From a virus, in the UHGV virus genome UHGV-0020642: a stretch of 62,536 bases of DNA; one strand, 5' to 3'. This document shows, piece by piece, positions 22,448 to 45,912 of this stretch (position 1 is its first letter; every line of letters begins with the position of its first letter). The translations under genes were made by a program, and so were the position numbers. A model generated the notes under the pieces. It searched no databases. It was not told where the DNA came from and saw only the letters and a list, made by a program, of their open reading frames with translations.

Positions 22448-22471
22448 ATTTGTCTCCTTTCGTTGTTAAAA

Positions 22472-22555: not shown

Positions 22556-24127
22556 TTATACCCCAAATCCTCCTTTTAACTCATCTAATTGTCTTGATTT
22601 TTCAATTTCATTAAATTTTTCCTCACCATTACTATAAGTTGCGAATGGGTGTATTGCAATTCCACCACGAGGTGTGAATAAACCCTTGACTTCTAAATAT
22701 TTTGGTTCTAATAATTTAACTAAATCTTTCATTATAATATTAACACAATCTTCATGAAAATCTCCATGGTTTCTAAAACTGAATAGATATAATTTTAGTG
22801 ACTTGCTTTCCACCATTTTCTTATCTGGAATATATTTAATGTGAATTGTTGCAAAATCAGGTTGACCTGTTTTTGGACATAAGCTAGTAAACTCATAAGC
22901 ATTAAATTTTACTACATAATCATTACCTGGATGTTTGTTTTCAAAATACTCTAATTGTGAAGGGTCATAATCATATAAGTATTTTGTATTTTTAGCACCT
23001 AGACCTTTAACAGTACCAAACTCCTCGCCTGAACGTCCTGCGTTGGTTTCTTCACTTACGTTTTCTGGCACCTCTGCACTAGCTTTTACATCGCTTAAAG
23101 ATAATTTTGATTCTTTTGCTTTTGTTTCCATTAATTTTTGGTCTTCTTGTCTTTGTTGTTCCATTAACTCCGCCTTTCTTATAAGTTCTTTATGTTGCTC
23201 AATTGTTTTTGGTTTTAATCTAATAAGTGTACGTTTTTTAATTTCTGTGCCCCTATATTCATAATTTTTAGCCCAATCTAACAAATAAGCTATATTAAAT
23301 TTACATCTTTCTTGATAGCTTGTAGACAAATCCTCAAACTTAAATTTATATTTCTTACATAAATCTTTAACCTGCTGTATTTCTGCAGATGTTTGATGTG
23401 AAATATGCTGTGGATTATCAGTTTGTTTATCACTAATTACAACAGTTCCATTTGGTGTCATTATCCCGCCATTTGCACCTGTCATAATCCAACTAGTTGA
23501 ATCTGCACTTGTAAATGGATATCTTTCTAATACAGGTAAAGATGTCATTCCGAATGCGTGTGTCATAACATTTGGATTACTACTTTGACCAATTATTCTA
23601 AATACAGTTTCAAACCATTCATTTTTTTCTTTTGTTGACCTATCGTTAGCAGGAGAAACTCCAATATATGGAATATGCTTACCATCAAAAGTAGTTTCTA
23701 GCATAGTTACAAGCCAGTCAAAGTCTTCGTTTTGGTGAAATACGGGTAGTATTTTATCTGGACTTTTAACTCTTTCACGCATATACAAATAATTTTCCCA
23801 GCCAATTAAAGGAGCTTCTAAACATTCCTTTCTTGTTTTAGGCTTTCCAAACTTACCAGGAATCTTATCTAATTCGGCCGCAATATAAATAAACTCATCT
23901 CTTTCGTTTAAGAACTCAATATACTTATCGATATCAACTTCTTTACCTACTGTATGTGCAGAAAAAGCACCCGAGTCAATAAATAATTTACCCTTAGCTT
24001 TATTTTCAATCCAAGCTTCTATAACATTTCTATCATTTATCCAACTGGCAAGTCTATTTGCTTTTTTACTAATTAAATATTCTCGCCATGCTGGGTTATC
24101 GCTACCAGCGAAGTACAAATTAAACAT
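22556..24127 (-). CDS. queF: bifunctional protein: N-terminal DpdA-like 7-deazaguanine DNA transglycosylase (inferred) fused to C-terminal preQ0 reductase QueF
   Basis: The C-terminal ~130 aa ([58 protein letters not shown]...[10 protein letters not shown]) is an unambiguous unimodular QueF. The N-terminal ~380 aa has no motif I can name; the DpdA assignment rests only on context (a que cluster with no other transglycosylase) and carries about 0.4 confidence. Confidence 0.7.
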
Positions 24128-26408
24128 CTAATTTTATCTCCTCTCCGTACCATCTTTTACAAATTACCATATCACATCTCCAAGGTAGTTTAATTTTAGC
24201 TTGCGGAGATGTTTCCATAGTTTCTTGGTACAATTTTGCTAGTTTCTTTAAGTTACTTTCAGGACCTGTAATACCCAATTCATCGTGAATTTGTAATACA
24301 ATTTTTCCACCTAATTTTTTAAATTCTGGATTATACCATAAATTTACCATTGACAACTTAATCATGTCTGAAGCTGTTCCTTGAATAGGAGTATTAATTG
24401 CCTGTCTTTCTGCCGCCGATATTTTAGAAGTATTATCCACAATCTTAATATTTTCTTCTAGAGCTTGTTGAATAATTTTTTGTTTATCTTTCCATTTGTA
24501 GCAATTATCTAAAGCATCTTCATATTCCTGTTGTATATCTAGAGGAACTTCCTGTACTGCTGTCTCACTATCAAAATCTAATAAATCAAAATTATTACCC
24601 ACACCGTCGTTCCAAGAAAATTCATATGGTTCTAACTGCATATCTGGCAGATGTCTCCTTCTGCCCCATACAGTTTTCACATAACCATTTTTATAAGCGA
24701 ATTTATATGTACTTTCTGTAAATTCTTTAATACGTGGGAACCTAGCAAAGAATTTATGTTGAATTTCTTGAGCCTCTTTTAACTTTTTGCCCAAACTTTT
24801 TGCCAATGAATAAGCTTCTTGTCCATACGTCATAGCAAGCTGAATAATTTTTGCTTGACTTCTTCTTTCCTTTCCTTCTTTGTTAGTTGTGCCATCCGGT
24901 CTAAATTCTCTACACTCGTCAGCAGGAACACCAAAAGCTGTACTAGCTACTTCCGGATATAAATCTGCATTCCTATCAGTTTTATAAATTTCCAACATAT
25001 TCTCATCTTGACTTAACCAAGCTGTTGCCTTTGGTTCTTGTTGAGAATAGTCGGCAAATATTAAAACTTGGTCCTCACCATCTTCAGTTTTACCCGCTAT
25101 AAACATTTGTCTAATGTCATCGTTATGTGAAGGTATATTCTGCAAATTAGGGTCGCTACTTGAAAATCTACCTGTATCTGTGCCATTCTGGTTGAAACTT
25201 GCATGAATTTTACCTGTTACTGGATTTATAACTTTTGGCATTTTATCAATATATGTAGAAAGTAATTTATTTATTCCTCTATATTTTAAAATTACTTCAA
25301 CAACAGGCTCCTCCATAGCACTTAAAATTTCATCACCTGTTCCTCTAGGTTTACGTTTATCATTACTTGTTAAACCTAAAACATCATAAATAAGTTGTGC
25401 AACTTGTTTCGGACTGTTTGGATTAAGTGGCAACTTAAACATATCTCTAGGATTTCGCTTATTGTATTCAGCAATTTCCTTTGAATATAATTTACAAACA
25501 TTGTCTACTTCTGTTTCACATTCTTCTAGTTGTTTATGATACTTAACAGACAATTCACTTGCATATTCGGTATCAATAGAAATACCTGTACGTTGCATAT
25601 CTGCCACTACTTGCACCAGCGGAATTTCAATTGAAGCTAATAACTCTTTCAACTCTAAATTTTCCGGACGGTTATATTGTGTCAACTGGTATTGATACAC
25701 TTCATATGTTATTTGTGCGTCCTTAGCCCCATATAAATAAGCAATATTAATTGGTATATACGCAAAATTTACACCTTCAAACAACGAAGAGTAATCATTT
25801 ACTTTACCATCTTTTGCAACATATTTAGAATACAAATATTTCAAACCAGCATCTTCCAACTCATTAAGTATTTTAGAAGCTACCATTGTATCCCAAACTA
25901 ACGTATCAAAACACCAATTAAATCTAAAATATCCAACATTAATATCAAATTTGCCGTTGTGCATAATTGAAGGAATACTTTGTAATCTTTTTAATTGTCT
26001 TTCAACTACATCTAAACTTAATTGATTTTGCTTAATTAAATTATCTACGAAACTTCTATGACTTACTGGTACATAACAAGCCTTCATGCCTGGTGTATAT
26101 AAACTAAAACCAACTAATTCACAAGTTATAAAATCTAAACTTGTGGTCTCTGTATCGAATGCGAATATATTATTCTCTATACATTTATCAATATAGCTTG
26201 CTAATTCTTCTTCTGTTTGTATTAGCAAAAACTCGTCTTTTAAATGTCCTAACTCTGCTTCAACTTTTGCTCTAATTAGTTGTATTCTATCCCCTATTGT
26301 GCTTCCAGTTGATTTTCTTGTTGTAACCTTTTTCTTTGAATTTTGTATTTTAGAAGCAACCTGTGAGGTATTTACTCCCACAGGTGCTTTAATATTAAAT
26401 AATGCCAT
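24120..26408 (-). CDS. polA: DNA polymerase I (family A) with 3'-5' exonuclease domain
   Basis: FDTETTSLD is exo motif [17 protein letters not shown] is pol motif B (R...K...YG), and VLQIHDEL is motif C; 762 aa. Confidence 0.9.
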
Positions 26409-32125: not shown

Positions 32126-33843
32126 TATTCACCTAAAACTCTATTAAGTAATTCATTTATAAATTGTCTATTTGTAGTTTGACCATCTATAAAATAACTT
32201 GCGAGTTCTCCTTTCTTTAATACTATCTCGTTTACTACTTCATCAATTGTATCTTGACACATTAAGGTATATACATTTACAGTTTTTGTGGTACCAATTC
32301 TATGACATCTATCCATAGCTTGGTTTTTGTTAGCTTCATTCCAAGGTTCGTCTAAGAAGATAACATTATTACCTGCTGTTAATGTGATACCTGTGCCCAT
32401 AGCCTGTCTTGTGCCTAAGATAACTTTACAATCTTCATTATTTTGAAATTTTTGTACTTCAATATCTCTTTGCTCAATTTTTACATCACCTGTAATGAGA
32501 GCTGGGTTGTATTTTTTACATCTTTTGTATGCTTCATAAATAACTTGTGAAAATTCACTAAATACAACAACTTTTTCTTCGTTTGCAACTGCGTCTTCTA
32601 TAAGTTGCATCATCATATCTAATTTTGTTGTATGTGTAGCCGTTGAACTTAATAAACTACTGTAACCAGTAACTTGTCTTAACCTTGTTAATTGTGCTAG
32701 TGGGTTAGGACTTAATTTTATTAAATCAATTTGTTCTCTTAAAGCTGTTCTAACTTCGTCATATAATTTCCACTCCTCTTTTGACATATCTAAATAAATA
32801 GGTATGTTATTTTTAGGTGGTAAATCTAAAACATCTTCTTTTCTTCTTCTTAACATACAATTATTTAATTTTTGCACAATTTCATTTTTATTTTTATATG
32901 CAATAATTTGATGGTCGCCAAACCCTCCAAATATACAATAATGATTTTTAAATTGTGTGAATGTGTGAGTTTCTTGGTCTAACCATTTTAAAATAATGTA
33001 TAAATCTTCAATAGAATTCATTAAAGGTGTTCCACTTACTGCAATTCTTTCTTTTGCTAATAATCTTTGAAATCCTTTGCCTTGCTGAGAATTCGGGTTT
33101 TTACATTTATGTATTTCATCAGCAATAACCATTCCTATTTCGCCTCTAACACACATTCTCTGCAATCTTGTAGTTATTTCAGGGTTTCTCAAAGTTTCCA
33201 CATTTGTAATAATAAAGAAATTATCTATACCATTCTCTAAATCTTCAATTTTTTCTTTGGTATCTTTAAAAGTTAATTTTCCTTTATTTAAACCTCTCTG
33301 TATAACACGTTGGCCCAAAATATATGGTTTCTCGTTTGTATGTTTTATAATCTCATGCCACCAATTAAGTTTTAAATTATTTACACCGACAACTATTAGA
33401 CAATGTTTGAACCAGTGTTGCTGTCTTTTAGCAAGTGCGATATTTAAAGTTTGGAATGTTTTTCCTAAACCCTGGTCATCTGCTAATAACCATTTTTGAC
33501 TATTCATTCCATAATTAAAGCCTTCTATTTGATGTTTTCTAGGTTGTGTTTTGTATTCGTATTCTACACCACAATCTTTTATTTTGTCTTTATCGCCTTG
33601 ATTATAACTTACAATAGTTAATTGGTCATAAATATCAAAATCTTCTTTTATTTGTGCTAATTGTTGTTTAAGTGCTTCCAAACAATTAAAAGGTAGCTCC
33701 CATTGTTTACGTGAAGGGTGCCAAAATTTACGTTCGAAACCACGCATAATATTTACTATTTTCGCATCATAAGGAAATGATACTAATAGTGCTTTCTCTG
33801 TTTTTAAGTTAATAGGTATATCTATAATTATTTTAACTGCCAT
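32125..33843 (-). CDS. SNF2-family helicase
   Basis: LADDQGLGKT (motif I), VIADEIHKCKN (DExH), QAMDRCHRIGTTK (motif VI). The track start (TTG, 33861) falls inside the promoter-like motif, so I used the ATG at 33843. Confidence 0.8.
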   Translation of the reverse strand: MAVKIIIDIPINLKTEKALLVSFPYDAKIVNIMRGFERKFWHPSRKQWELPFNCLEALKQQLAQIKEDFDIYDQLTIVSYNQGDKDKIKDCGVEYEYKTQPRKHQIEGFNYGMNSQKWLLADDQGLGKTFQTLNIALAKRQQHWFKHCLIVVGVNNLKLNWWHEIIKHTNEKPYILGQRVIQRGLNKGKLTFKDTKEKIEDLENGIDNFFIITNVETLRNPEITTRLQRMCVRGEIGMVIADEIHKCKNPNSQQGKGFQRLLAKERIAVSGTPLMNSIEDLYIILKWLDQETHTFTQFKNHYCIFGGFGDHQIIAYKNKNEIVQKLNNCMLRRRKEDVLDLPPKNNIPIYLDMSKEEWKLYDEVRTALREQIDLIKLSPNPLAQLTRLRQVTGYSSLLSSTATHTTKLDMMMQLIEDAVANEEKVVVFSEFSQVIYEAYKRCKKYNPALITGDVKIEQRDIEVQKFQNNEDCKVILGTRQAMGTGITLTAGNNVIFLDEPWNEANKNQAMDRCHRIGTTKTVNVYTLMCQDTIDEVVNEIVLKKGELASYFIDGQTTNRQFINELLNRVLGE

Positions 33844-33847
33844 ACAT

Positions 33848-33863
33848 TTATTGTATAACAAAA
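33848..33863 (-). promoter_or_regulatory. conserved promoter-like motif TTATTGTATAACAAAA immediately upstream of the SNF2 helicase ATG
   Basis: Minus strand reads TTTTGTTATACAATAAATGTATG. There are only 6 nt between the TACAAT hexamer and the ATG, which may mean a leaderless mRNA. Confidence 0.4.
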
Positions 33864-33955
33864 TTAAAATTTTTGTACATTATGTAAAGTTTTGTAAAAG
33901 AAAAGTACACCCATAATTGATGAGTGTACCTTAGGAAGTATGTTAAAGAAGAGTT

Positions 33956-34429
33956 TTAGTGATGTTTTCGATAGTTAATCTTTTCCATGGCGTCATAAAA
34001 TGCTCGCTCACTAGCATCTCCTTGGTAATCTTCATCCTCTAAATCAGCTAGTGCATATTTTACATAAGTTGAAAAGTCTTGTGTAATTTCGCCGTAATCT
34101 GAATATTTCATATTCATCCAATATGCAAAATCATAACAAGTATAATCTGTATCTGTAAAATCAATATTAACTTTATTTTTAATGGCATTATACTCCCATT
34201 TTGGAGTAGGTTCACCTGTTTTATTTTCTAATGTATTTATAGCCTTATTATACAGTTCTATATCTCTAATATGAGCACCGTATCTTAAAGTTTCAATAAA
34301 ATCTGTAATATCAACTTCGTCTTGCATAGTTGCATATTGCTCTAATTTTAGAAACTTTTCTGGTTCGTTATCTATAAGGTATTTTAAATTATGTTTAATA
34401 GATTCCATAAGTCCTCCTATCTTCCACAT
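33956..34429 (-). CDS. hypothetical protein
   Basis: 157-aa acidic ORF. Confidence 0.35.
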   Translation of the reverse strand: MWKIGGLMESIKHNLKYLIDNEPEKFLKLEQYATMQDEVDITDFIETLRYGAHIRDIELYNKAINTLENKTGEPTPKWEYNAIKNKVNIDFTDTDYTCYDFAYWMNMKYSDYGEITQDFSTYVKYALADLEDEDYQGDASERAFYDAMEKINYRKHH

Positions 34430-34758
34430 TTACAATTACATTGAGGCGGTAATGTGTATGCTACAATTTGAGGTCCTGTTGAACCATAATAACCTTTAAT
34501 TTTACGTCTTTTAATAAGTTCAGAACCTAATACAGGATTTCCAGCCCTATCTAATAAATTAATAGTTGCTGTACCTACGGCAATTTTAACGGGTAATGCA
34601 GAAATACCTGAAGGTAAATCTGTTGTTATTGCGAAACAAAAAGGTTGTAAATTTTCTAATGTAGATGTTCTATCTGTTGTTAAGGTTACATCTGCACTAC
34701 CGACTGTAATAGAAGTCACTCTAAAGAAATATTTACAACAATTACATAGACAATTCAT
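34417..34758 (-). CDS. Cys-rich hypothetical protein
   Basis: N-terminal CLCNCC and C-terminal CNCKCG Cys clusters flank a beta-strand-like TVGS/AVGTAT core. Confidence 0.35.
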   Translation of the reverse strand: MNCLCNCCKYFFRVTSITVGSADVTLTTDRTSTLENLQPFCFAITTDLPSGISALPVKIAVGTATINLLDRAGNPVLGSELIKRRKIKGYYGSTGPQIVAYTLPPQCNCKCGR

Positions 34759-34814
34759 TTTAATTTCCTTTCCTTTTCAAAAGAGGGCAGGATAAATCCC
34801 ACCCTCTACAATCT

Positions 34815-35465
34815 CTAATAACCTACATAGTTTCCACAACCGCCACACATATTGGCACTTGTATAAGGTGAACAAGTAACATAAGCAGGAATTGGGAATG
34901 GTCTTACAGAATTGATAATTGTAGACGTTTGAGAAAGTGTACCCAATTGAAGTTGAGCCGCCTGCAACTGGTCTCTCAATTCTTGTATTGTATTTTGAGT
35001 CATTAGAGCTCTTGTTGCTTCACCATCTGCATGAATAGCATTGACGATATCGCAAGTATTTTTAGCATTTTCATAACGAACTGCGTCAATATTGCGATTA
35101 GTTGTGCAACAACATGAATCTTGGCTATGTTGCAAATTAGACAACGCCATTTGAACACCTCCGAAGCCTTGACATAAGTCTTTTTGAGTGTTAAATTGGT
35201 TATTGGCAATTTGTGTAAAGCCTTGACCCAAAGTGTTTTCTATACGGTCTTGTCCTCTACCTAATTGATTTGACAAGTTTGTGTATAGAAAGTCATTGTT
35301 GATTTGGTTGGTATAACCATTGTTACCAAATCCGAATCCTCCGCCTCCCCAAGCAAGTAGGAAGAACAAGAAGAATACCCAAGCATCATTACCGCCGCCA
35401 AACATACCATTGTTGTTTTCACGGCCAAGCAAAAGAGCTTCGGTTGAAGATAAACCTGAATCCAT
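34815..35465 (-). CDS. Gly-rich membrane-associated hypothetical protein
   Basis: Hydrophobic segment VFFLFFLLAW, then GGGGFGFGNNG, Q/N-rich, with CCC and CGGCG clusters. Confidence 0.35.
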   Translation of the reverse strand: MDSGLSSTEALLLGRENNNGMFGGGNDAWVFFLFFLLAWGGGGFGFGNNGYTNQINNDFLYTNLSNQLGRGQDRIENTLGQGFTQIANNQFNTQKDLCQGFGGVQMALSNLQHSQDSCCCTTNRNIDAVRYENAKNTCDIVNAIHADGEATRALMTQNTIQELRDQLQAAQLQLGTLSQTSTIINSVRPFPIPAYVTCSPYTSANMCGGCGNYVGY

Positions 35466-35533
35466 AGTTTAACCTCGCCTTTCTTTACTTAAATGTACCT
35501 ACTCACATAGTTTTCACTATGGAATCATCAGGA

Positions 35534-35773
35534 TTACATCTTTAATCCGAATTGTGATGCCCACTGAGTTAATTGTTGTGGGTCAATATTTCTTTCTTTT
35601 GCGACATTTTGAATTATTGATTTTATTGTATTAGAATCTTTACCCTGTGCCATTTGCATAGCTTGACTAAATAGCGGATTATTTCCAAACATCATTTTTG
35701 CGGCCTGTATAGGGTTGGGGTTATTTTTAAGCTGTGCGAACATTTGGAACAGTTGCATTGGATTTTGGTTCAT
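35534..35773 (-). CDS. hypothetical Q-rich small protein
   Basis: 79 aa. Confidence 0.25.
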   Translation of the reverse strand: MNQNPMQLFQMFAQLKNNPNPIQAAKMMFGNNPLFSQAMQMAQGKDSNTIKSIIQNVAKERNIDPQQLTQWASQFGLKM

Positions 35774-36167
35774 GTTTTAATTCCTTTAATTGTTGCTCTA
35801 ACATCTCAACTTTACTTTGTAATTCTTCTATAATTTTGTTGTTGAGAGGTTGTTCATTTAATGAAGAAGAAGTGTTTTGGGGTATTGGTTGCTCTACATA
35901 ACATTTTAAAGGACAACTGCCATCATTTAAAAGCTGTTTGGTATAAATTCTTTTATTAGCTATATCCGGAAATATGTTTAGACTACCATCGAAATCTATA
36001 GCAATTCCTTGAGCTTCCTCAAAGCAAGTAACAGGGCGACCTTTCAAAAATCTTTGAACTTGGCCGCTCTGTACGGAAGAAGGTTGCACACCTGCATTAA
36101 AAGGTTGCATTCTTTCGAATAATTGAGGAGACTGGATATAGTTGGGGTAATTGTAATTTGAGACCAT
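35727..36167 (-). CDS. hypothetical protein
   Basis: 146 aa with a coiled-coil C-terminus. Confidence 0.3.
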   Translation of the reverse strand: MVSNYNYPNYIQSPQLFERMQPFNAGVQPSSVQSGQVQRFLKGRPVTCFEEAQGIAIDFDGSLNIFPDIANKRIYTKQLLNDGSCPLKCYVEQPIPQNTSSSLNEQPLNNKIIEELQSKVEMLEQQLKELKHEPKSNATVPNVRTA

Positions 36168-36189
36168 TAGTAAAATTTCCTTTCCACAA

Positions 36190-36240
36190 TTTAATTATAT
36201 AAAAATACGCCCTCATTAGCAATTAAATGAAGGCGTATTA
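36190..36240 (-). terminator. rho-independent terminator candidate downstream of the endolysin
   Basis: 8-bp stem AATACGCC/GGCGTATT (36204-36239) with an A-run on the plus strand (a U-run on the minus-strand RNA). Confidence 0.45.
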
Positions 36241-36271
36241 TTAAATCTATCGAAATGTTTTTACTTTCTAT

Positions 36272-36790
36272 CTAAACATTGAATATTTCCAATTCGTTGT
36301 TTACCGTTCTCAAAGCATCTACATGAACCCAACCATTTGTAGATTTTAAATTCTCTACACGTTTAAAGGCTTTAAGTTCTTTTTTCCTAATTAAATTACA
36401 GATAAATTCGTGTAATTTTGCATTTTGACCTCTAGAATCGTGCAAATCAAAGCCTTTTGCTAAATTATGACCGCCTAGATATGGCGTTGTTTTAGCTTTT
36501 ACAATAGGGTCTATATTACACCTTAAGCCACATTGAGAAAGGTTTCCACCTCTTGACCAGTTGTTGATTATAATTTCCCTACCCCATTTTTCTCTAATAT
36601 AATCTAAATCTTTTAAAACTTGTTCATCAAAAAATTTCCACATAAACATTTCACCATATTTTGGTTTGTAGAAATTATAGACTGTTTTACTGACTAATTC
36701 TTTAATATTAAAATGAATACAGATATACATATATTTCCTCTTAGGTTGTCCTACTTCCATCATAATTTTTAAAAGTTTTGGGTTTATCAT
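36272..36790 (-). CDS. endolysin, peptidase M15 family (L-alanyl-D-glutamate peptidase-like)
   Basis: GHNLAKGFD (H-x6-D) together with a later WVHVD histidine fits the M15 zinc triad; sits beside the holin candidate. Confidence 0.5.
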   Translation of the reverse strand: MINPKLLKIMMEVGQPKRKYMYICIHFNIKELVSKTVYNFYKPKYGEMFMWKFFDEQVLKDLDYIREKWGREIIINNWSRGGNLSQCGLRCNIDPIVKAKTTPYLGGHNLAKGFDLHDSRGQNAKLHEFICNLIRKKELKAFKRVENLKSTNGWVHVDALRTVNNELEIFNV

Positions 36791-37029
36791 TTCGTAAAAT
36801 CCAATTTTTCTAATACAAGGTCCATTTTTGTATTAAGTTCTCTTAGTAAATCATGGTCAATAGCAACACTTTTATAGATTTCTGCTCTACAATGCTCACA
36901 TTTTTTATGAGTAACATATTTCAGACTAATAAACCAATCTAGCAATTTTAATGCTCCTATTATAGCTCCAATTCCTAATAAAACAAAGAAGCCTATTGTG
37001 TATATAGCTATTTGATTTGTATCAAGCAT
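36787..37029 (-). CDS. putative holin
   Basis: 80 aa, a single transmembrane segment IAIYTIGFFVLLGIGAIIGAL and a charged C-terminus, immediately upstream of the endolysin. Confidence 0.3.
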   Translation of the reverse strand: MLDTNQIAIYTIGFFVLLGIGAIIGALKLLDWFISLKYVTHKKCEHCRAEIYKSVAIDHDLLRELNTKMDLVLEKLDFTK

Positions 37030-37516
37030 TCCAACCTCCTGCTATTTTTTGATAGTTATCAACAGAATGCTTTATAGCCCATCTTCTTAAAGGCCCTGTT
37101 CCACCTTGTTTACAAAGTTTTTCTAGTACAATAGTTGACAAGTATCTGTTATTGTCCACATAATTATGATTTTCGCATAATACATCATGTATCATAGAAG
37201 CAATCATAAATTTTGGGTCAGTTTTTGACCCTATTAATCTCCAAAATATACGAGGTATAGATGCACCATCCCACGTGTAATATTGAGGAACTGTAAAGCA
37301 ATATTGACAAGTTTCACCATGTTTATTTTTATAAATAATTTTGACATCTAAATTATCCATATTCATAAATGGTTTTGCCAATTTATCCTCTTGTTGTTCT
37401 TCAGTATCGCCTGGACAAGGATATCTAAAATCAACATGAGGATTACTAGAAAATAGAATTGCGAGCTCATCATCTTTATAATAAGGTATAGGATTGGTTA
37501 ACATATACTCCTCCAT
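37022..37516 (-). CDS. hypothetical protein
   Basis: 164-aa ORF. Confidence 0.35.
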   Translation of the reverse strand: MEEYMLTNPIPYYKDDELAILFSSNPHVDFRYPCPGDTEEQQEDKLAKPFMNMDNLDVKIIYKNKHGETCQYCFTVPQYYTWDGASIPRIFWRLIGSKTDPKFMIASMIHDVLCENHNYVDNNRYLSTIVLEKLCKQGGTGPLRRWAIKHSVDNYQKIAGGWNA

Positions 37517-37525
37517 TTACAATTC

Positions 37526-37768
37526 TTATTTCAAAGGTAAATCTTCTTTTACTTTACCATTTATTTGAATAATTACGCATAAACCTGATTTTGATACATT
37601 AACTGTTTGTGTAGATTTTCCAGACATTGGTTGTTTTTGTATTTTAAATACAGCACCCGATTTTTCTACATTTACAGATTGTACAGCTTCTGTCGTATCT
37701 TCTGCATAACATACAGAGCTGAATAATAGTACACAAAAAATTCCTAAAATTGACAATAAATTTTTCAT
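37526..37768 (-). CDS. small secreted protein
   Basis: Signal peptide MKNLLSILGIFCVLLFSSVCYA. Confidence 0.3.
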   Translation of the reverse strand: MKNLLSILGIFCVLLFSSVCYAEDTTEAVQSVNVEKSGAVFKIQKQPMSGKSTQTVNVSKSGLCVIIQINGKVKEDLPLK

Positions 37769-37774
37769 AATTAC

Positions 37775-38068
37775 CTACTTTCTTAATTGTTTTGAAATAG
37801 CTGGATTTATTTTATTTATGCCTTTTTCTACAATAGAATCAGCTATAACATTTATCTTTTCGCTATCTAGGGGACAGGTCCCAAGAAAATAAGTGAGACC
37901 TGCTTGCACCCCGGCAGAAATTAATTTCTTTTCAACTTTATCTACAGGTTCACATTCTTGAACTTTATCTAAAACATCTGCAATCCTATCCTCAATAAAT
38001 TCTCTTGCACCATTTAATGTTTTAAATAGAAAAATAATAGGTGATAATAAAGTTTTAATAATATTCAT
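37775..38068 (-). CDS. hypothetical protein
   Basis: 97-aa ORF. Confidence 0.3.
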   Translation of the reverse strand: MNIIKTLLSPIIFLFKTLNGAREFIEDRIADVLDKVQECEPVDKVEKKLISAGVQAGLTYFLGTCPLDSEKINVIADSIVEKGINKINPAISKQLRK

Positions 38069-38096
38069 TTCTACCTCCGACAGTTTTGTTTGTTTG

Positions 38097-38603
38097 CTAA
38101 CTTATTTGAGTCATTTGACCTGTAAAATCTTTCATTTTAACTTGCATACATTCATTTATAAATTGTGGTGTAATTTGTTGATTTAAAATTTGTAAAGATT
38201 TCATATAATCTTCTGTTAATTCTTTACTAAAATCTGGTAATTTATAAGCTACTGGCAATACAACAGGCGTACCTGAAGATAATGCAATAGCAAATAAAGG
38301 TAAATTATTATTTAAGAAATTATCAACTGTGCCATCTGCTAGTGTTGGTTCACGTCTTATCCAACCTAAAGAAGTTTCAAAAAATTGTTGTTTAAAACCT
38401 TTTTCTCTTGTAATTTTTAGTTCCTCTAAAAATTCTTCATCTACAACAATTTTACCATTTTCAACTTTATATTTTTCAGGATAAGCCATATAATCATAAT
38501 AGACTTGTTCTTCAACTGCGTAACTTGTAATCTTACTAGAATTCATTTGTTGATTACTACAATTAATAATTTTATTGTTCTCTACATTTAAGTAAAATCC
38601 CAT
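38097..38603 (-). CDS. hypothetical protein (possibly a tail-fibre accessory protein)
   Basis: 168 aa, located after the tail fibre and DGR RT and before the lysis genes. Confidence 0.3.
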   Translation of the reverse strand: MGFYLNVENNKIINCSNQQMNSSKITSYAVEEQVYYDYMAYPEKYKVENGKIVVDEEFLEELKITREKGFKQQFFETSLGWIRREPTLADGTVDNFLNNNLPLFAIALSSGTPVVLPVAYKLPDFSKELTEDYMKSLQILNQQITPQFINECMQVKMKDFTGQMTQIS

Positions 38604-38612
38604 AATTCCTCC

Positions 38613-39908
38613 TTATTCTAAATAAAATGAGTTGCCATTTCTTTTTATTGCTACACTAAAAGGAAAATCTTCAATATTTATCCTTTTTAATTGATTTTCA
38701 ATAACTTTACTTCTTGTGAATGTAATGTGTAATTGTGTATCTTTTTCATCATTCACATACACAAATTGAATTTTATTAGAATCTTCGCCTTTAACTTTAC
38801 AATGCTTCCAAGCGGTTATTATTATTTGCTTGTCTATTAATGTCAATATTGAAACTTTTGTGCCTGTCATTGGAAATTCAGGTTTTGGACCTATATTTTT
38901 AAATTCTTTTATTGACATATCTTTTATTAAATTATCCAAATTTAGGCTCCTTATTAAGTTATATGTGTAACAATGTTTAGCATAACCTCTATATGAATTT
39001 AATGTGCATAGTTGTTTTAGAAATGGTCTTTTATCTCTATTTTTAACTATGTCTAAAACTGCTCTTTTAAGTTTTTTGGCGGTTCTTTTTCTTAAAAGTG
39101 TATAGCCTGTAAAGTGTCTATAACCTAAGAAATCTATACCTTGTTTGCAAGGAAAAACTTCACTGTAACTCATTTTCTGTTTCAATTCTAATTCTACAAA
39201 TTGATGAATTTGTTTTTGGATATCCAAAAGTTGTTCCTTACTATTAGATAGTATAACACAATCATCGCAATATCTACAATAGTTTTTCACTTTTATTTTA
39301 TGTTTTAATAATTTATCAAGTTTATTTAAGTATATATTACCAAATAGTTGGCTGGTAAGATTGCCGATTGGACAATTTTTACCGCCAGGAAAAGAAAATA
39401 CTATATCTTTAATAATTCTTAATAAATATTTATCTTTTATTTTCTTTTGTATCTCTGTAAATAAAATTTGTTGGTCAACAGTAGGATAAAATTTTTTAAT
39501 ATCAGTCTTTAAACAATATTTATTTTTCATTATTAGCTTTCGTACTCTATAACTTCCAGCTATTGGTCCTCTGCCTTTTATACAACCAAAAGTATGAGAA
39601 ATAAAGCCTTTAACAAATATATCTTCTATGATATTATTTATTGCGTGATGTACAATTCTATCTCTTAAAGGTAATATGTAAATAAGTCTGTGTTTACCAT
39701 TTTCAAATATTTGTTTTGTACTGTATTTTGATGTTGTAAATCTATTATTTATCACGTCTTGTCTTAAATTTTCTAAATTAGTTGCAAGATTCTTTTCAAA
39801 TTGTTGCACATCTTTTCTATCTCTTCTACCTCTTGTTGTTTTTAACCAAGCTTCAAAGAAATTTTCTTTAGTTATAAATTTATTCCATAATTTACCAGTT
39901 CTCTTCAA
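38613..39908 (-). CDS. diversity-generating retroelement (DGR) reverse transcriptase
   Basis: NCPIGNLTSQLFGNIYLNKLD carries the DGR-specific I/LGxxxSQ motif in place of the QG of other RTs. YCDDCVIL is RT motif C (YxDD). LPLRDRIVHHAIN is RT motif 2. TTG start with an AAAGGAG RBS. The TR lies about 135 nt upstream. Confidence 0.9.
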   Translation of the reverse strand: MKRTGKLWNKFITKENFFEAWLKTTRGRRDRKDVQQFEKNLATNLENLRQDVINNRFTTSKYSTKQIFENGKHRLIYILPLRDRIVHHAINNIIEDIFVKGFISHTFGCIKGRGPIAGSYRVRKLIMKNKYCLKTDIKKFYPTVDQQILFTEIQKKIKDKYLLRIIKDIVFSFPGGKNCPIGNLTSQLFGNIYLNKLDKLLKHKIKVKNYCRYCDDCVILSNSKEQLLDIQKQIHQFVELELKQKMSYSEVFPCKQGIDFLGYRHFTGYTLLRKRTAKKLKRAVLDIVKNRDKRPFLKQLCTLNSYRGYAKHCYTYNLIRSLNLDNLIKDMSIKEFKNIGPKPEFPMTGTKVSILTLIDKQIIITAWKHCKVKGEDSNKIQFVYVNDEKDTQLHITFTRSKVIENQLKRINIEDFPFSVAIKRNGNSFYLE

Positions 39909-40043
39909 TTTTCTCCTTTAAAATGAAAGGCCCGAATTTTCGCATATTGCTACTCAAACTGACCTTTCCCCGTATTGTTTTTTCGCCGAAACGAAGGATT
40001 TAGGCCCCAGCTTGCACCTTAGGAATCTTCCCAGATACAATAA

Positions 40044-40153
40044 CACGCCCCGGCAACCATTATTCACATTCGAGTTCAACAGGTTATTATTCGAATTAAC
40101 AGACCACGAACCACAGTTCGAAGAGTTGTCGTATTTACCACCTAGTTTCACCA
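40044..40153 (-). repeat. DGR template repeat (TR)
   Basis: 110-bp intergenic copy of the VR, GC-richer than its surroundings. On the minus strand it is Asn-codon rich (translates ..YDNSSNCGSWSVNSNNNLLNSNVNNGCRGV). It differs from the VR only at its adenines. Confidence 0.85.
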
Positions 40154-40268
40154 GGAAGGGCCTTAACCCTATAAGTTTGTTTCACGTTCTAAGCTCTAAG
40201 ATTTTAGGACTTAGGATTTTGTGTTACGGCCCTTCCTCGCAAGCTCGGAAGAGCAGGTTTTGGTTTGG

Positions 40269-42320
40269 TTATGCGTGTACACGTTCTAGGTGCAAGCTCA
40301 CGCCCCGGCAACCATCAGCCACATTCGAGTTCAACAGGTTAATATTCGAACTAACAGACCACGAACCACAGTTCGAAGAGTAGTCGTAACCACCACCTAG
40401 TATCACCACATAAGGAACACCATAAGTACCGCCACGTCTAGCATCTGCAAAGGCATTCCAGTTTTGTGAACCAGTTGCCGCGATTTGTCTAGATACTTGC
40501 CATAAGTAACCGCAACAGCATTCTATAAAGTAACCAGAAATCATACGTTTTCCAGCTGTATCTAAATATCCACCACATTTTTTATCAGTTGGGATATTTG
40601 AACCTTGAATATTCGTTTTCTGGTTAGAACCTTCTGCGAATGTCATAAATTCATCTCTACTTGCTGGCATTTTACCTACCTGTTTTAAATCCCAGAAGAA
40701 GTTTTGATATTGTCTGTTATTAGAAATTGTACCTGCATAGCTAGAAGCAGAAGCTGAACCTGTTCCACTTAACAAGTAAATATCTACCCAAACTCTAACA
40801 TCATTTCTATCTACAAACGCCATGCCTTTATTTCCTGTTTTGGCCGCTGAACGAAAAGCAGGAGTCCAAGAAGAGTTAGGAATAAAGTAACCTGCATTAT
40901 AACCTTTTGCTGGGTGGTTCATCCAAAAACTATCAGCAGGAAGGTCTGGTGCATTACTTTCTGTAACACCCACGCATAAAGTGTGAGCTCCACCTATTTG
41001 AACTGCGTTTGTAATACCTGTAGGTAATTGTTCGTTTAAACTAGCAACTAAATTACCTTGATTATCTAAATAGAAATAATAATCTTTACCATTACTTACT
41101 GTACCGGTATCTAAAATTTCTGAAATTGGTTTAAGCAAATCATTTTCTGTATAGAATGTATCACCGTTTGCTTTTCTAATTGCTGTGCCACCTTTAATAG
41201 TTACATATTGCTTATCTGCAAAAATAAAATTTGGTTGTTTATATTCAAATTCTCTATTTGCATACCAAATAATATTTGCTTTTTTAGGTAATTCTGCAAG
41301 ACATTGAGTTGTATTAGTTAAAGAAGTTTCATCTGCTCCTGTTGCTAATTGTACCATTGGTCTTAATTTAATTGAATTTGGTTGTACTTTTGCATTGTCT
41401 TGGTAAACAGTATTGCCTATTGAAGCATCAATTTCGGCATCGCCCGTGTTATCAGTAGCGCCTGTGGTATTCCAATTAAATACACCTTTACTACTATTAG
41501 AGATACGAACTTGTCTGTTCGAAAGATTATCACCTATAAATGTTCTACCGACATAACCCGCAACATTTGGTAAACTTTCAGAAACAAATTGTCCTACTTT
41601 ACTAACTTCATCAGCTTGCACATAAATTTCTTTAATTTTAGGCACTTTAAATTTTTGATTTGTAGTATCTAAACCAAAGTATGTACAAACACCAGTAGAT
41701 TCAACTTGAGACGCATAAGTTTCATAATCTACACTCGGTATAGAACCTGCAACCAATAAATCATATGGGTTTGTATCACCTGTAAAGTCAGATTTATTAA
41801 ATTCTTGGGCATTACATTCATAAGCCCCATTTAAAGAATTATCTTTTCTAAACGTCCAGAAAAAATCACCTATGTTTCTACCTACTGCTCCTTTATTTTC
41901 TAAAATATAGAAACAATCTTGAGTAGAGTCATATCTTAATGTTACAAGCCAACCTTGTGGAATAGAGCCTGCTGTTAATGCTTGATTTTTAAGTGTTTTA
42001 ATTTGTTTTGCACCAAGACTATTTACATTTACATAACAATCTCCTGTATTAGAAGTTGAGGATTTAAAGACAACTTCCATACCGTTGAAATAACTTGTGG
42101 GTGCTACGTTTTGAGAATCATCTGAAAAAGTTACCGGAGCTAATACATAAGTATTAGAACTATAACTTGTATTCTCATAAAAAGAACCATTACTTGCATA
42201 AACTGGCATTAGGTTGGCTAAATTATTGATACCTTCGCCTATATTATTCATATGAATAGGTCTTACAGTATCATTGTCAACCCAATTAGTTTTTTGGTCC
42301 GCTACTAAATTGTTAGACAT
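40269..42320 (-). CDS. tail fibre protein, DGR target (variable C-terminal domain)
   Basis: 683 aa, last gene of the tail/baseplate cluster. Its C-terminus ...GGGYDYSSNCGSWSVSSNINLLNSNVADGCRGVSLHL carries the VR; the variable residues correspond to AAY/AAA codons in the TR. Confidence 0.75.
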   Translation of the reverse strand: MSNNLVADQKTNWVDNDTVRPIHMNNIGEGINNLANLMPVYASNGSFYENTSYSSNTYVLAPVTFSDDSQNVAPTSYFNGMEVVFKSSTSNTGDCYVNVNSLGAKQIKTLKNQALTAGSIPQGWLVTLRYDSTQDCFYILENKGAVGRNIGDFFWTFRKDNSLNGAYECNAQEFNKSDFTGDTNPYDLLVAGSIPSVDYETYASQVESTGVCTYFGLDTTNQKFKVPKIKEIYVQADEVSKVGQFVSESLPNVAGYVGRTFIGDNLSNRQVRISNSSKGVFNWNTTGATDNTGDAEIDASIGNTVYQDNAKVQPNSIKLRPMVQLATGADETSLTNTTQCLAELPKKANIIWYANREFEYKQPNFIFADKQYVTIKGGTAIRKANGDTFYTENDLLKPISEILDTGTVSNGKDYYFYLDNQGNLVASLNEQLPTGITNAVQIGGAHTLCVGVTESNAPDLPADSFWMNHPAKGYNAGYFIPNSSWTPAFRSAAKTGNKGMAFVDRNDVRVWVDIYLLSGTGSASASSYAGTISNNRQYQNFFWDLKQVGKMPASRDEFMTFAEGSNQKTNIQGSNIPTDKKCGGYLDTAGKRMISGYFIECCCGYLWQVSRQIAATGSQNWNAFADARRGGTYGVPYVVILGGGYDYSSNCGSWSVSSNINLLNSNVADGCRGVSLHLERVHA
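40299..40408 (-). repeat. DGR variable repeat (VR) inside the 3' end of the tail-fibre gene
   Basis: Aligns to the TR at an offset of 255 bp. In my hand alignment there are 10 substitutions, all at minus-strand TR adenines (10 of about 29 As) and none at the other ~81 positions. The VR ends 28 nt before the stop codon. Confidence 0.85.
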
Positions 42321-43282
42321 TATGCTTCCTCCTGTAATTTTAATGTGTGTACTAATTGAACAGTATCTGGAACTGGAATATATACATTAGCATTCTCAAG
42401 TACATTATCCTCAGTATCCAGTAGTTTTATATTTGTTATATTCTCAATTTGACTTCTTTCTACAGAATATTCTAATCTAATAGTATCCGGGCCAATTGTT
42501 TTATGAGAATCTTGAATAACAATTTCTAAAGTATCATTTAATTTTGCTTTATAGAATTTTGGTTTATATTTTTCTAAAGTATAATCAAATAAAGGCTGTT
42601 GTAAACTTTTAATATTTGGCATTTTTACGATTTCTCCTTGCTGTCTTGTAAACGAATCAATTCCTAATTTCCAATCACCATTAAGTCTGTAATTATAAAT
42701 AGTTTCGCCGTCAACACTATAAAAAGGACTAGCTCCTAAAGACCATCTGCCGTCTAGTTTATAGTTCCAAATTAATTTTTGAGCATATATAGTCTCATTT
42801 ATATTTAAAACTTTACTAACTCGTGGCACATTGATAAAAATCATATTACAAGGCTTAACTGCTGTAATAGATACTTGTATTTCGTGATACCATAAACTAT
42901 CTTCAACAGCACTTTCTAATAATATTGTAAAATTATCATTATCCACATCTAATTTATAGCGACCTTTGCCGAAAAATCCATCCAACATAATTCTTAAATA
43001 GTAATATGTGTATGGAGGAGTTAGCATTTTCATTCTAGATAAAATACGTTCTCTTCTAAATTGTACTGATTCTGTTTCAGGATTAGCTACAATATTAAAT
43101 ATATTTTCATAATAAGGTAATACTTTTAAACTTGCAAATTGTACAAACTGGTCCATTAATGCTTGTTCGTAAGTATTATTCATCTTATTTATTTCAATAG
43201 AAAGAGAGTCTTGCTGAGTTTCTGACTCAACAACACCCTCGTACACTATAGGCAAGTATTGTTTTAAATCTACATTATTCAT
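42320..43282 (-). CDS. baseplate/tail protein (XkdU/DUF2313-like), putative
   Basis: 320 aa; position between baseplate J and the tail fibre matches the PBSX-like order. Confidence 0.4.
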   Translation of the reverse strand: MNNVDLKQYLPIVYEGVVESETQQDSLSIEINKMNNTYEQALMDQFVQFASLKVLPYYENIFNIVANPETESVQFRRERILSRMKMLTPPYTYYYLRIMLDGFFGKGRYKLDVDNDNFTILLESAVEDSLWYHEIQVSITAVKPCNMIFINVPRVSKVLNINETIYAQKLIWNYKLDGRWSLGASPFYSVDGETIYNYRLNGDWKLGIDSFTRQQGEIVKMPNIKSLQQPLFDYTLEKYKPKFYKAKLNDTLEIVIQDSHKTIGPDTIRLEYSVERSQIENITNIKLLDTEDNVLENANVYIPVPDTVQLVHTLKLQEEA

Positions 43283-44450
43283 TTATAGTAATTTCTCCAA
43301 CTATTGGTACCTGTTGAAGAGTTTCATTTTCTGTTAATGTTATATCGTCTAAGGCACCATTTAATTTACAAGATGTAATATTCTCAACACCTGTGGTATT
43401 TAATATAGCACTTCTAACTCTTGCTATAATTACCTTTAAGCTATAATTGTTTAAATCATCAGCTTGGTCCCACTCTTTGCGTAAACTTAGAAAATAATTT
43501 TCTATATTAGTTTTAATATTTGGGTCTACTGCTTGAGAAGAATATGATTTTTTATATTCTACAGTAGCTTCAATATTTACTTTTAAAGCTGTTCCGCCTA
43601 CAACTGTAACAACGTGACCAATTGGTGCTTTGCCAAGACCCTTACCTGCATATTCATCATTATAATGTGGGTCAACAGCTTTTTGAATATTTGCTATAAG
43701 TGTTGAGCTGGGAATACTAAAAGAAGAATCAATAAAAGAAATTTTTACAGTTCCTCCTCCATCCCAAGCTGGATATATTTGACAAATACCTACACCGTCT
43801 AAAGATTCAACATATTGTCTATAATCAGTTATATTGCCCCCGAAAGGTTTTTCATTTACTACTTCAAAATATTTGTTTCTTAAATCTTCAATATCTTGGT
43901 CATCTTCACCAGGAACTAGAATATCCGTTAGAGTTGCTGTTGCTAATCCAGATAAATTCAATACTGGTACTATTTCTCCAAAATATTCATTACCTATGGT
44001 ACCAGTTTCTGTACACTCTAAAATGTAAGAACCTGGAACTGTTTCATCATTTTTAGTGTAAACTGAAATTACTTTAAAATTTACTAAATTGGTTTCACTA
44101 ACTGTTGAAAATTCTGTACCTATTGTGATAGGATAAGGTTGTCCTGCTCCATCTGTAAATGTTCCAAGTCTTTTTGCATAGGTAGCCGGTTCTCTTTCAA
44201 TTCCCTGTTCTGCACATCTATATTCAAGAAATGGAGATTGAGCTGTGGCCGCAAACGCATTTAAAATCATAGCTTGCAAATACAAATAAGCCTTAGCTAT
44301 CTCTATACAACAAGGAGCTCCAGCATCCCAAATAATAGAGCCTTCACGTTTGTCCACATCATCTCTAACATTACCAAGATAACTTGCTAAAATATATTCA
44401 TAATCTTGCTCATCTACATAATCTGGAACTTCAGGTATATTACTAGCCAT
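43275..44450 (-). CDS. baseplate J-like protein
   Basis: 391 aa; position and size match XkdT/gpJ in this gene order. Confidence 0.55.
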   Translation of the reverse strand: MASNIPEVPDYVDEQDYEYILASYLGNVRDDVDKREGSIIWDAGAPCCIEIAKAYLYLQAMILNAFAATAQSPFLEYRCAEQGIEREPATYAKRLGTFTDGAGQPYPITIGTEFSTVSETNLVNFKVISVYTKNDETVPGSYILECTETGTIGNEYFGEIVPVLNLSGLATATLTDILVPGEDDQDIEDLRNKYFEVVNEKPFGGNITDYRQYVESLDGVGICQIYPAWDGGGTVKISFIDSSFSIPSSTLIANIQKAVDPHYNDEYAGKGLGKAPIGHVVTVVGGTALKVNIEATVEYKKSYSSQAVDPNIKTNIENYFLSLRKEWDQADDLNNYSLKVIIARVRSAILNTTGVENITSCKLNGALDDITLTENETLQQVPIVGEITINE

Positions 44451-44808
44451 AATTTAACTCCTTTGTTATTCCTTCTATATAACCTTCTGTAGAAATTACA
44501 TCAAAAGTTATTAAACAACTGTCAATAGTTTGTTGTTCAACTGTAAAATTTTGAATACTTTCTACTCTATCATCTTGTAATAAACAATCTTCAACGTAAG
44601 ACTGTAAATTTGTCTGTATATAGTCTAAATCTTGTCCTATAAAAGGTTCCATATCTAAACCATATAACCAGCCGTAAATTAAGTATCCAAATTTTTCAGT
44701 GTCTAAGGCCTTATAAATGGATTGAACCAATGCTTGCTTATTGTCAATCATTGATGAAATACGTCCTGTGGCGGAATTTATATAATATGTAAGTCCTGGT
44801 TCTGCCAT
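44443..44808 (-). CDS. baseplate wedge protein (XkdS/gp25-like), putative
   Basis: 121 aa, immediately upstream of the baseplate J-like gene. Confidence 0.4.
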   Translation of the reverse strand: MAEPGLTYYINSATGRISSMIDNKQALVQSIYKALDTEKFGYLIYGWLYGLDMEPFIGQDLDYIQTNLQSYVEDCLLQDDRVESIQNFTVEQQTIDSCLITFDVISTEGYIEGITKELNYG

Positions 44809-44853
44809 TTACTCCTCCTGAATTATTATAACACGAATTTGATAATTTGTGTA

Positions 44854-45912
44854 CTAATTTGTCATATTTTGCTTTAATAAATCAGCCATCTGTTTACTTG
44901 CTTTTGTAAAACTTAATTTCTTTAAAGAATTTGATACGGCCGCTGTGTCTTTACTTGTGATTTTTGAAACACCTAAAATATTATTTACAATTCCAAATCT
45001 GCCTCCCAAATCTTGTAAAGAACCCTTAATCTTCCAAACTTTTATAGTAGTGTCAAAAATTAAATTTCTAACACCGTTGTAAGTAGAAAATGCCCAAATT
45101 AATTTTTTAGACACTACTGGATAATATTTTTTACAAAAATTATAACAATCGCTAATTGTTTTAATAATTTTACTTTTAGTTTTATTTTCAGGGTTACTAG
45201 ACTTACCGTCATCATTTATAGCAGAACCTTTACTATTTAATTTTTTGGGCTTAATATCAGTCCATTCTATTAATGATAAATCATAGGTATAGTCACCGTT
45301 ACTTTCTGGATTTGACCTAAATGTATCTAAAGTATATTTTTTAGCAGGCATATTACCACCATCGTAAAAAGTCATAGATACTGTAAATGGTTGTTCCGAT
45401 GATGATAAAATTTTAAATAATTTAATGTACATATCTGGAGTAGGTTCTTTCTCAGTTAAACCTTTAATATCCTTTACTGTGTTGTCATATAAATTAGTGA
45501 TTCTATTACCCATATTTTGCAAACCTGACCAAGATAAATTTCTAGTAGTCGTATTCAAGTAGGGTGCAGATGTGTCATAAGGAAAGAAACTTGACCATCT
45601 AATTTGTGTGGCTTTTTTATATTTAGGTAATACAACCTCACCTATTCGAGCAACATTTTCAGAATCTTTTGAATTACCAAAGTCTAGTTGAATAGTTGGC
45701 GGAGTTACTGGTATTTCAAAAGCTATGGTGCCTGTGGGCTTATTATTTTCCATATATGCTTTGACAGTAAAACCTCGATATCCGTTACAAAAAGATAATT
45801 GTTCTGAGTAGTTTAGGGTCACAAAGATATGAGCAGGTCCTGGCGCTTTTTTAAGACCTGCGAATACACCTATAGGAAGTTTTTTAGATTTTAATGAGTC
45901 TAGTATTGCCAT
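44854..45912 (-). CDS. tail/baseplate protein
   Basis: 352 aa inside the tail module. Confidence 0.4.
   Translation of the reverse strand: MAILDSLKSKKLPIGVFAGLKKAPGPAHIFVTLNYSEQLSFCNGYRGFTVKAYMENNKPTGTIAFEIPVTPPTIQLDFGNSKDSENVARIGEVVLPKYKKATQIRWSSFFPYDTSAPYLNTTTRNLSWSGLQNMGNRITNLYDNTVKDIKGLTEKEPTPDMYIKLFKILSSSEQPFTVSMTFYDGGNMPAKKYTLDTFRSNPESNGDYTYDLSLIEWTDIKPKKLNSKGSAINDDGKSSNPENKTKSKIIKTISDCYNFCKKYYPVVSKKLIWAFSTYNGVRNLIFDTTIKVWKIKGSLQDLGGRFGIVNNILGVSKITSKDTAAVSNSLKKLSFTKASKQMADLLKQNMTN

Follow-up and report, generated by a model that had tools for sequence, protein, structure and literature searches.

A naturally active diversity-generating retroelement without avd in an AT-rich myophage, with a candidate accessory domain fused to its reverse transcriptase

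Diversity-generating retroelements (DGRs) directed at phage tail fibres are well known. About a quarter of DGRs lack the accessory protein Avd, and since 2018 (PMC5758913) it has been an open matter how these function. The locus described here bears on that question. It lies in UHGV virus genome UHGV-0020642, a stretch of 62,536 nucleotides (nt) referred to below as the window, in which a sequence-only reading had placed a reverse transcriptase (RT), a template repeat (TR) and a variable repeat (VR) as a tail-fibre-directed DGR of the Bordetella phage BPP-1 Mtd type, and had suggested a minimal two-gene system. Is this an active DGR, and what stands in it where BPP-1 has Avd? Computational analysis recovered every element of the cassette, and the main claims made for it hold. 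We are close to certain that it is an active DGR of a ~63-kb AT-rich myophage. Coordinates are window positions throughout, and all genes of the region lie on the minus strand (Table 1).

A repeat-finder program returned a single long direct repeat in the window (40033-40153 and 40288-40408), with a clean core of 110 nt. One copy is the VR at the 3' end of the tail-fibre gene and the other is the intergenic TR, with the spacing proposed from the letters alone: the target stop and the TR are 115 nt apart, and a further 135 nt separate the TR from the RT start, a TTG codon at 39908 preceded by AAAGGAG. Program alignment of the TR and VR cores gave mismatches at 10 of the 110 positions, and all 10 fell on TR adenines (hypergeometric P = 4.3e-7, with 29 A in the 110-nt TR); none fell on any other TR base. 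When every A of the TR was replaced by N, the resulting pattern matched two sites in the window, the TR and the VR, and none in 100 shuffles. No second VR or second target was found in the window with this pattern or with 15-mer searches. In the VR frame, the TR adenines fall in 10 AAY, two AAA, one TAC, one GAC and one CTA codon. Arithmetic from this list gives 4^29 (~3e17) possible DNA variants and ~4e15 protein variants of the receptor-binding face, counting 15 residues for each AAY, 20 for each AAA, and four each for TAC and GAC. At their 3' ends the two copies have in common a GC-rich 15-mer, GGTTGCCGGGGCGTG, found at these two sites only in the window, and beyond it they diverge at non-A positions in an ungapped alignment. 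By analogy with BPP-1, these ends would serve as initiation of mutagenic homing (IMH) and IMH* elements.

Table 1 Features of the DGR cassette and of the 7-deazaguanine cluster (window positions)
Feature	Position	Strand	Description
Target gene	40269-42320	-	Open reading frame (ORF), 683 aa, tail-fibre / receptor-binding protein
VR	40299-40408	-	110 nt, codons 638-674 of the target's 683
IMH-like 3' end of VR	40278-40313	-	GC-rich 15-mer GGTTGCCGGGGCGTG common to TR, then divergence
Putative hairpin past VR	40229-40254	-	GCTCTTCC, 10-nt loop, GGAAGGGC; weak
Duplex 5' arm	40157-40170	-	AGGGUUAAGGCCCU, ~14 nt immediately 5' of TR
TR	40044-40153	-	110 nt, intergenic, 29 adenines
IMH*-like TR counterpart	40023-40058	-	Same 15-mer GGTTGCCGGGGCGTG
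Spacer (Sp) RNA	39909-40043	-	135 nt; three covarying hairpins and duplex 3' arm; A-rich run after hairpin 2
Duplex 3' arm	39995-40008	-	Spacer nt ~36-49
RT gene	38613-39908	-	ORF, 431 aa
RT catalytic part, DGR type by similarity	38931-39908	-	aa 1-~326; 8ub7, Pfam RVT_1, PHROG 1423
mod1, RT C-terminal domain	38616-38912	-	aa ~333-431, fused; basic, predicted OB-like fold
168-aa acidic ORF	38097-38603	-	pI 4.77; 10 nt after RT
FolE	20166-20729	-	7-deazaguanine cluster
QueE-like radical SAM protein	20729-21412	-	7-deazaguanine cluster
QueD/PTPS	21400-21795	-	7-deazaguanine cluster
QueC	21788-22447	-	7-deazaguanine cluster
523-aa protein, C-terminal QueF-like domain	22556-24127	-	7-deazaguanine cluster

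Activity in nature was revealed by a public contig of 62,584 bp (L003) whose RT protein is identical to that of the window. Over window positions 32613-45908, the two align without gaps at 99.925% identity, with 10 differences in 13,296 nt; all 10 lie inside the VR at TR-adenine positions, and the TR is the same in both. The element is therefore active in nature, and VR turnover is restricted to positions that are A in the TR. At the protein level, the 90%-identity cluster of the target comprises seven sequences, whose VR-encoded residues 638-674 vary at 13 codons only (640, 644, 646, 647, 650, 657, 659-661, 664, 666, 668 and 669), each of which has a TR adenine as its first or second base. 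VR polymorphism confined to TR adenines, named by the sequence-only reading as the pattern to look for in populations of this phage, was thus seen in both comparisons. Two more contigs of the same phage start inside the repeat; assemblers break at heterogeneous VR/TR pairs. A fossil DGR, with old TR/VR differences and an inactive element, might be argued from the TTG start codon of the RT and from the fact that one genome alone cannot demonstrate activity. It is contradicted by near-identical contigs that differ only in the VR, by the seven target variants, whose VR-encoded residues differ at A-bearing codons and nowhere else, by contigs that break at the repeat as heterogeneous VRs would make them, and by an RT ORF that is intact and belongs to a family conserved down to 40% identity. 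It would require the VR variants to be assembly artefacts, and we consider it very improbable.

Another contig (L002), whose phage shares 98% identity with the window, begins inside the repeat (positions 1-90 of L002), with VR-type bases at three TR-A positions together with a TR-type spacer; this start is probably a VR/TR assembly chimera.

The RT was assigned to the DGR type from its similarity to known enzymes. Among solved structures its best match is the DGR RT of the Bordetella phage (8ub7; E = 2.8e-49, 171 bits, residues 3-319), whereas group II and retron-type RTs score ~66 bits against the same protein, so that by similarity score it is not closer to the latter. The motif described as DGR-diagnostic, IGNLTSQ (general form [LIV]GxxxSQ), and the YCDD catalytic box (YxDD) are both present and align with their counterparts in the Bordetella RT (PIGNLTSQ with PIGSLTSQ, RYCDD with RYMDD). 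PHROG 1423 matches residues 1-326 (E = 1e-102), and Pfam RVT_1 also matches. The RT matches in NCBIfam were to the group II intron RT (122.7 bits, cut-off 300), retron St85 (cut-off 235) and Drt3a (cut-off 200), all far below cut-off, and Rfam and tRNA scans of the window returned no hit at all, hence no intron or retron RNA. An RT taken from a group II intron, retron or defence system, with the 110-nt repeat as an unrelated duplication of the tail-fibre 3' end, could appeal to those three families being the only RT matches in NCBIfam and to the 'retron-type' label that RT relatives carry in some sources, but given the sub-threshold scores and the lack of intron or retron RNA it has almost no chance of being right, and it is refuted by the adenine-only mismatches, the 8ub7 score and the VR differences between the window and L003.

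The target was predicted to be of the Mtd type, and similarity searches agree. Using phmmer, target residues 363-678 aligned to Mtd residues 55-378 (1yu4, E = 7e-7), almost the whole of Mtd including its VR-encoded end. Pfam mtd_2nd, the second domain of Mtd, matched residues 369-457 with 37.8 bits, and PHROG 11262, a tail protein, was also matched. These alignments indicate that the C-terminal ~320 residues are homologous to Bordetella phage Mtd, and place the VR, through that homology, in a probable ligand-binding domain of C-type-lectin (CLec) fold. The target gene follows baseplate J and Mu gp48-like genes.

A separate kind of variation was observed at codons ~253-305 of the target (window ~41406-41564), where seven otherwise near-identical tail-fibre proteins carry three unrelated alleles of differing lengths. 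The pattern looks like cassette-type mosaicism by recombination and is distinct from the DGR.

The window encodes no Avd at any position. As the sequence-only reading had stated, no Avd-like gene lies between target and TR, where the 115-nt gap is too small for a gene. Pfam and NCBIfam gave no match, and hence no Avd, for the three ORFs that follow the RT. The 71 small ORFs of the window match 32 Pfam families, and neither bAvd nor 23S_rRNA_IVP is among the 25 of these that are listed. An iterated hidden Markov model (HMM) of Avd, seeded with BPP-1 Avd and the Pfam-confirmed Avd of a related locus (L006), found no Avd in the window and 42 Avds in other loci. The avd gene (bAvd, PF22296 or PF05635) that characterises a BPP-1-type, Avd-dependent Architecture B DGR is thus missing. 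According to the gene map and Pfam scans the order is instead target-TR-RT, and avd, HRDC and MSL genes are all absent, which is Architecture A, the arrangement of 29% of the DGRs surveyed by Wu et al. (PMC5758913). By gene order and content, the cassette is a newly found, active member of this known Avd-less class, of which crAssphage LMMB is a described example (PMC7290462). Lineage 3, which is without avd, has been reported with CLec3-type VRs, and Mtd-like targets are classed as CLec1 (Wu et al., PMC5758913), so the combination found here may differ from typical Lineage 3. C-terminal extensions of unexplained nature are on record for some 20% of DGR RTs (PMC5758913).

The RT of the window has such an extension, residues ~333-431 continuing past the region common to the Bordetella RT (bRT). 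This C-terminal domain, here called mod1, has an isoelectric point (pI) of 9.4 and is kept in the family of ~430-aa RTs down to 40% identity, as well as in the Hankyphage RT. Structure prediction for residues ~349-431 gave a five-stranded beta-barrel with a helix between strands 3 and 4, as in an oligonucleotide/oligosaccharide-binding (OB) fold. The model resembles SSB, PriB or RPA-type domains, its best matches being single-stranded-DNA-binding proteins. In a relative with a 360-aa RT (L010), a 108-aa ORF overlapping the RT stop is homologous to mod1 (hhalign probability 97.5%, E = 6e-12). The label of a minimal two-gene DGR therefore fits as far as the missing Avd is concerned, but not the RT, which carries a fused domain of ~100 aa; most relatives encode this domain as a gene of its own, linked to the RT. 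Neither Pfam nor PHROG returned a family for mod1, for its frequent companion mod2 or for the 168-aa ORF after the RT, except for a weak match to phrog_19665.

HMMs for mod1, mod2, the 168-aa ORF and Avd were run on 166 loci retrieved from viral and genome collections with an RT alignment; a genome scan with the single RT protein had found nothing. The usual mod1 is a gene of ~100 aa that overlaps the RT stop by a few bases, with mod2 after it. Fusions of mod1 to the RT occur in the family of the window phage, in Hankyphage and in a few other cases. In some loci from Alphaproteobacteria metagenome-assembled genomes (MAGs; e.g. L103) mod1 abuts the RT start, and in L056 it lies between target and TR, the position of avd in BPP-1. 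The mod2 protein is acidic, ~100 aa long, and carries the motifs M[RK]GFPKxLNTKxDYLN and LGFTVEE. It does not occur in the window, follows mod1 in many relatives (e.g. L017 3490-3801, L010 6401-6694, L176 3298-3591), and is fused to the RT C-terminus elsewhere (L016, L061-63, L081). Neither mod1 nor mod2 was found after the RT of crAss cr50_1 or of Psychrobacillus phage Perkons. A search of 1.84 billion representative proteins with the mod1 profile returned 603 clusters, nearly all of ~95-110 aa. Three of these mod1 proteins were sampled blind to the RT, and both of those with informative contigs directly follow a DGR-type RT. The mean pI of free-standing mod1 proteins is 8.1; that of Avd is 9.5 (PMC5758913).

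Presence of Avd and of the mod genes near the RT was counted in the 117 loci with at least 900 nt on each RT flank. In 79 of them mod1 and/or mod2 occurred without Avd and in 31 Avd alone was found, while six had neither and a single locus (L111) had Avd together with a mod gene (Fisher's exact P = 3e-21, a value in which independence is overstated as the loci are related). In most mod-type loci the target stop lies 260-420 nt from the RT start, which leaves no room for avd. A simple rule for the repeat (a length of 70 nt or more, and 85% or more of the mismatches at A) held for 51 of 96 mod-type loci.

The spacer RNA between TR and RT is conserved and covarying. RNAalifold analysis of seven relatives gave 35 consensus pairs in the spacer, with compensatory changes in 21. 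The covariance model derived from this alignment (R1) scored window positions 39925-40058 at 139.5 bits. In 854 kb it gave 61 hits (E up to 1), of which ~59 read as directly upstream of an RT on the same strand; it also matched loci outside its training set (e.g. L055, E = 4e-10), with one weak match away from an RT (L080 11754), and it matched neither BPP-1 nor Hankyphage. A separate duplex, also conserved and covarying, brackets the TR. RNAduplex paired the ~14 nt immediately 5' of the TR with spacer nt ~36-49, and relatives have duplexes of other sequence at the same position. The pair count for this duplex (alignment A10) was 68.8% against 56.6% in shuffles, with covariation of 0.371 against 0.201 and none of 500 shuffles as high. 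Slid registers of 2-3 columns gave 35-48% paired and a shift of -1 column gave 46.9%; registers 0 and +1 column were equally good because of alignment offsets. Both the structured spacer and the TR-bracketing duplex resemble structured RNA elements of BPP-1 (10.1101/2023.10.23.563531, section 10), and the RNA architecture thus looks conserved although the protein partner differs. A putative hairpin past the VR is similar, by eye, in L005, L012 and L013, and not clearly so in L007 and L014; it has no T-run and is therefore not an intrinsic terminator, and no intrinsic terminator was found between target and RT.

A mechanism can be proposed by homology with BPP-1. In this pathway, an RNA covering the 5' arm, the TR and the structured spacer would be transcribed, followed by copying of the TR-spacer RNA by the RT into complementary DNA (cDNA) with misincorporation opposite template adenines. 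The cDNA would then replace the VR at the 3' end of the Mtd-like tail-fibre gene, with the GC-rich IMH-like stretch common to TR and VR as the 3' boundary of replacement.

From its coupling to the RT, its varied gene positions, its alternation with Avd, the RT-blind sampling and its pI, we infer that mod1 serves DGRs as an accessory module, a counterpart of Avd by analogy and not by homology, which in the window phage would be part of the RT itself. A more specific role, in which the basic OB-like domain of this RT would fill the part of nucleic-acid-binding scaffold that Avd has in BPP-1, is about as likely as not. That mod1, fused here and a free RT-coupled gene in hundreds of DGRs, often with acidic mod2, is a functional replacement for Avd is put forward tentatively, at just under an even chance. 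No description of a DGR with an OB-fold or SSB-like accessory was found in the literature searched, subscription papers and supplements being outside reach.

Several points weigh against the reading of the cassette as a whole. The alternation of mod and Avd tracks RT phylogeny, and the loci are for that reason not independent observations. The fused mod1 of Hankyphage is acidic, with a pI of 5.3. In L111 (2250-4081) an Avd-like gene and mod1 precede the RT (avd-mod1-RT); this locus, alone in having both, might be an evolutionary intermediate or a dual-accessory DGR. The spacer pair count (87.9% paired against 59.4% in shuffles, covariation 0.557 against 0.175, slid registers at most 0.122) was made on an alignment fitted to the covariance model itself. 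The hairpin or cruciform past the VR folded no better than shuffles in a DNA fold (z = +0.5), and cDNA synthesis, priming and integration are carried over from BPP-1 by homology.

A serious contender, though with somewhat less than an even chance, is a real DGR whose RT C-terminal domain does not replace Avd. The domain might have a later role, coating or delivering single-stranded cDNA for integration, or no RNA-scaffold protein might be needed, or a host factor might provide one. The single-stranded-DNA-binding proteins among the best fold matches would suit such a later role, as would the co-occurrence of avd and mod1 in L111 and the lack here of mod2, the usual companion of mod1 in relatives. 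Replacement of Avd by mod1 is favoured by the near-complete mutual exclusion of the two, by the L056 gene order, by a mean pI of free mod1 that we read as basic like that of Avd, and by conservation of the hairpin just past the TR, the site of the Avd-binding stem-loop in BPP-1.

The acidic ORF that begins 10 nt after the RT was also considered as an accessory. Its homologues form a tiny family of 26 proteins with a mean pI of 4.64 +/- 0.19, and in relatives they always follow the RT/mod cassette. Wu et al. described an accessory gene, CH1, of 160-169 aa and pI 4.7 +/- 0.2 that is adjacent to the RT and occurs only in Avd-less DGRs (PMC5758913); compared with this published description only, the ORF agrees with CH1 in size, pI and position. 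That it is a third DGR component equivalent to CH1 is nonetheless unlikely. It has no homology to the acidic 161-aa ORF after the Hankyphage RT (hhalign probability 0.4%), the likeliest proxy for CH1, and the small size of its family also argues against it. Its predicted structure (predicted local distance difference test score 91.6) has no significant structural neighbour, the weak ones including several tail-fibre assembly proteins, and the gene following a tail fibre is classically its chaperone. The ORF more likely encodes a tail-fibre assembly factor or chaperone.

The post-RT acidic ORFs of Hankyphage (L001 6302-6787, 161 aa) and crAss-like cr50_1 (L174 1572-1916, 114 aa) have in common an N-terminal motif, W.[IV]RWD[IV].E (BLASTP E = 8e-6). 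In Bacteroides phages they may form a further accessory family linked to the RT, which could be the CH1 described by Wu et al.

The neighbouring genes are consistent with the proposed AT-rich, PBSX-like myophage, an assignment that follows from an XkdN-like chaperone, an XkdM-like tube protein and a GC content of 31% within a PBSX/Mu-like gene set. Baseplate J, Mu gp48-like and sheath-initiator genes lie upstream of the target, and a DUF1353 protein, a probable holin and an endolysin lie downstream of the cassette. Megablast found no near-identical phage among GenBank phages. Contigs of ~63 kb in IMG/VR and other metagenome collections encode RTs 72-84% identical to that of the window. Among genomes, the closest relatives come from two MAGs, one of Melainabacteria (58%, on a contig of 108 kb that has the fused RT too) and one of Oscillospiraceae (54%, on a short contig). 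A RecU-type Holliday-junction resolvase is encoded at 17773-18282 (minus strand; Pfam, 39.5 bits). The RecU family is typical of Bacillota and their phages, a weak hint as to the host. A 7-deazaguanine (queuosine-precursor) cluster at 20166-24127 (minus strand), beside a family A DNA polymerase (24120-26408), suggests that the phage DNA carries modified guanines.

As a tail-fibre-directed phage DGR the cassette itself is ordinary, but the evidence for its natural activity is unusually clean, with two contigs identical save for A-templated VR changes. To the question of how Avd-less DGRs work, the OB-like mod1 offers a concrete candidate. If its proposed role is correct, mod1 would represent a second major type of accessory machinery in DGRs and would explain cDNA priming and processing in those without Avd, and the natural fusion of RT and accessory found here would be the simplest system for reconstitution. 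DGR-based mutagenesis tools currently rely on bRT plus Avd; a single polypeptide combining RT and accessory, with a covarying RNA, would be an attractive minimal system both for studies of mechanism and for targeted mutagenesis tools.

Among known systems, the BPP-1 DGR (mtd-avd-TR-brt) resembles the cassette in its homologous RT, in an Mtd-homologous target whose VR occupies the same C-terminal position, in the order target-TR-RT on one strand beside lysis genes, and in A-specific mutagenesis. Both also have a GC-rich IMH-like boundary, a structured spacer RNA and a TR-bracketing duplex, although the spacer sequences are not recognisably similar, R1 missing BPP-1. The window differs in having no avd, in an RT of 431 aa against 328 aa in BPP-1 with the extra OB-like domain, in a 340-aa N-terminal extension of the target, and in belonging to a myophage of 31% GC. 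Avd-less DGRs of Architecture A or Lineage 3, such as that of crAssphage LMMB, have the same target-VR-TR-RT order without avd, and crAss-like phages hold the closest RTs in phage databases (~39% identity). They differ in the CLec3-type VRs reported for Lineage 3 (PMC5758913), against an Mtd-like target here, and crAss cr50_1 has no mod1 gene after its RT.

Hankyphage (Bacteroides phage p00) is alike in its 434-aa RT with the same fused C-terminal domain (tblastn over residues 1-422; HMM E = 3e-18) and its target-TR-RT order. However, its RT is only ~30% identical, its target exceeds 2000 aa, a 64-aa ORF lies between its VR and TR, its fused domain is acidic, its post-RT ORF is unrelated, and it is a transposable temperate siphophage of Bacteroides. 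Finally, Avd (bAvd, PF22296) and mod1 are both small, basic and encoded beside TR and RT, occupy the same gene position in some loci and alternate across loci. Avd is a helical-bundle pentamer. It has been called barrel-shaped (10.1101/2023.10.23.563531), and its fold is unrelated to the OB-type beta-barrel predicted for mod1, so that any equivalence of the two would be one of analogy and not of homology.

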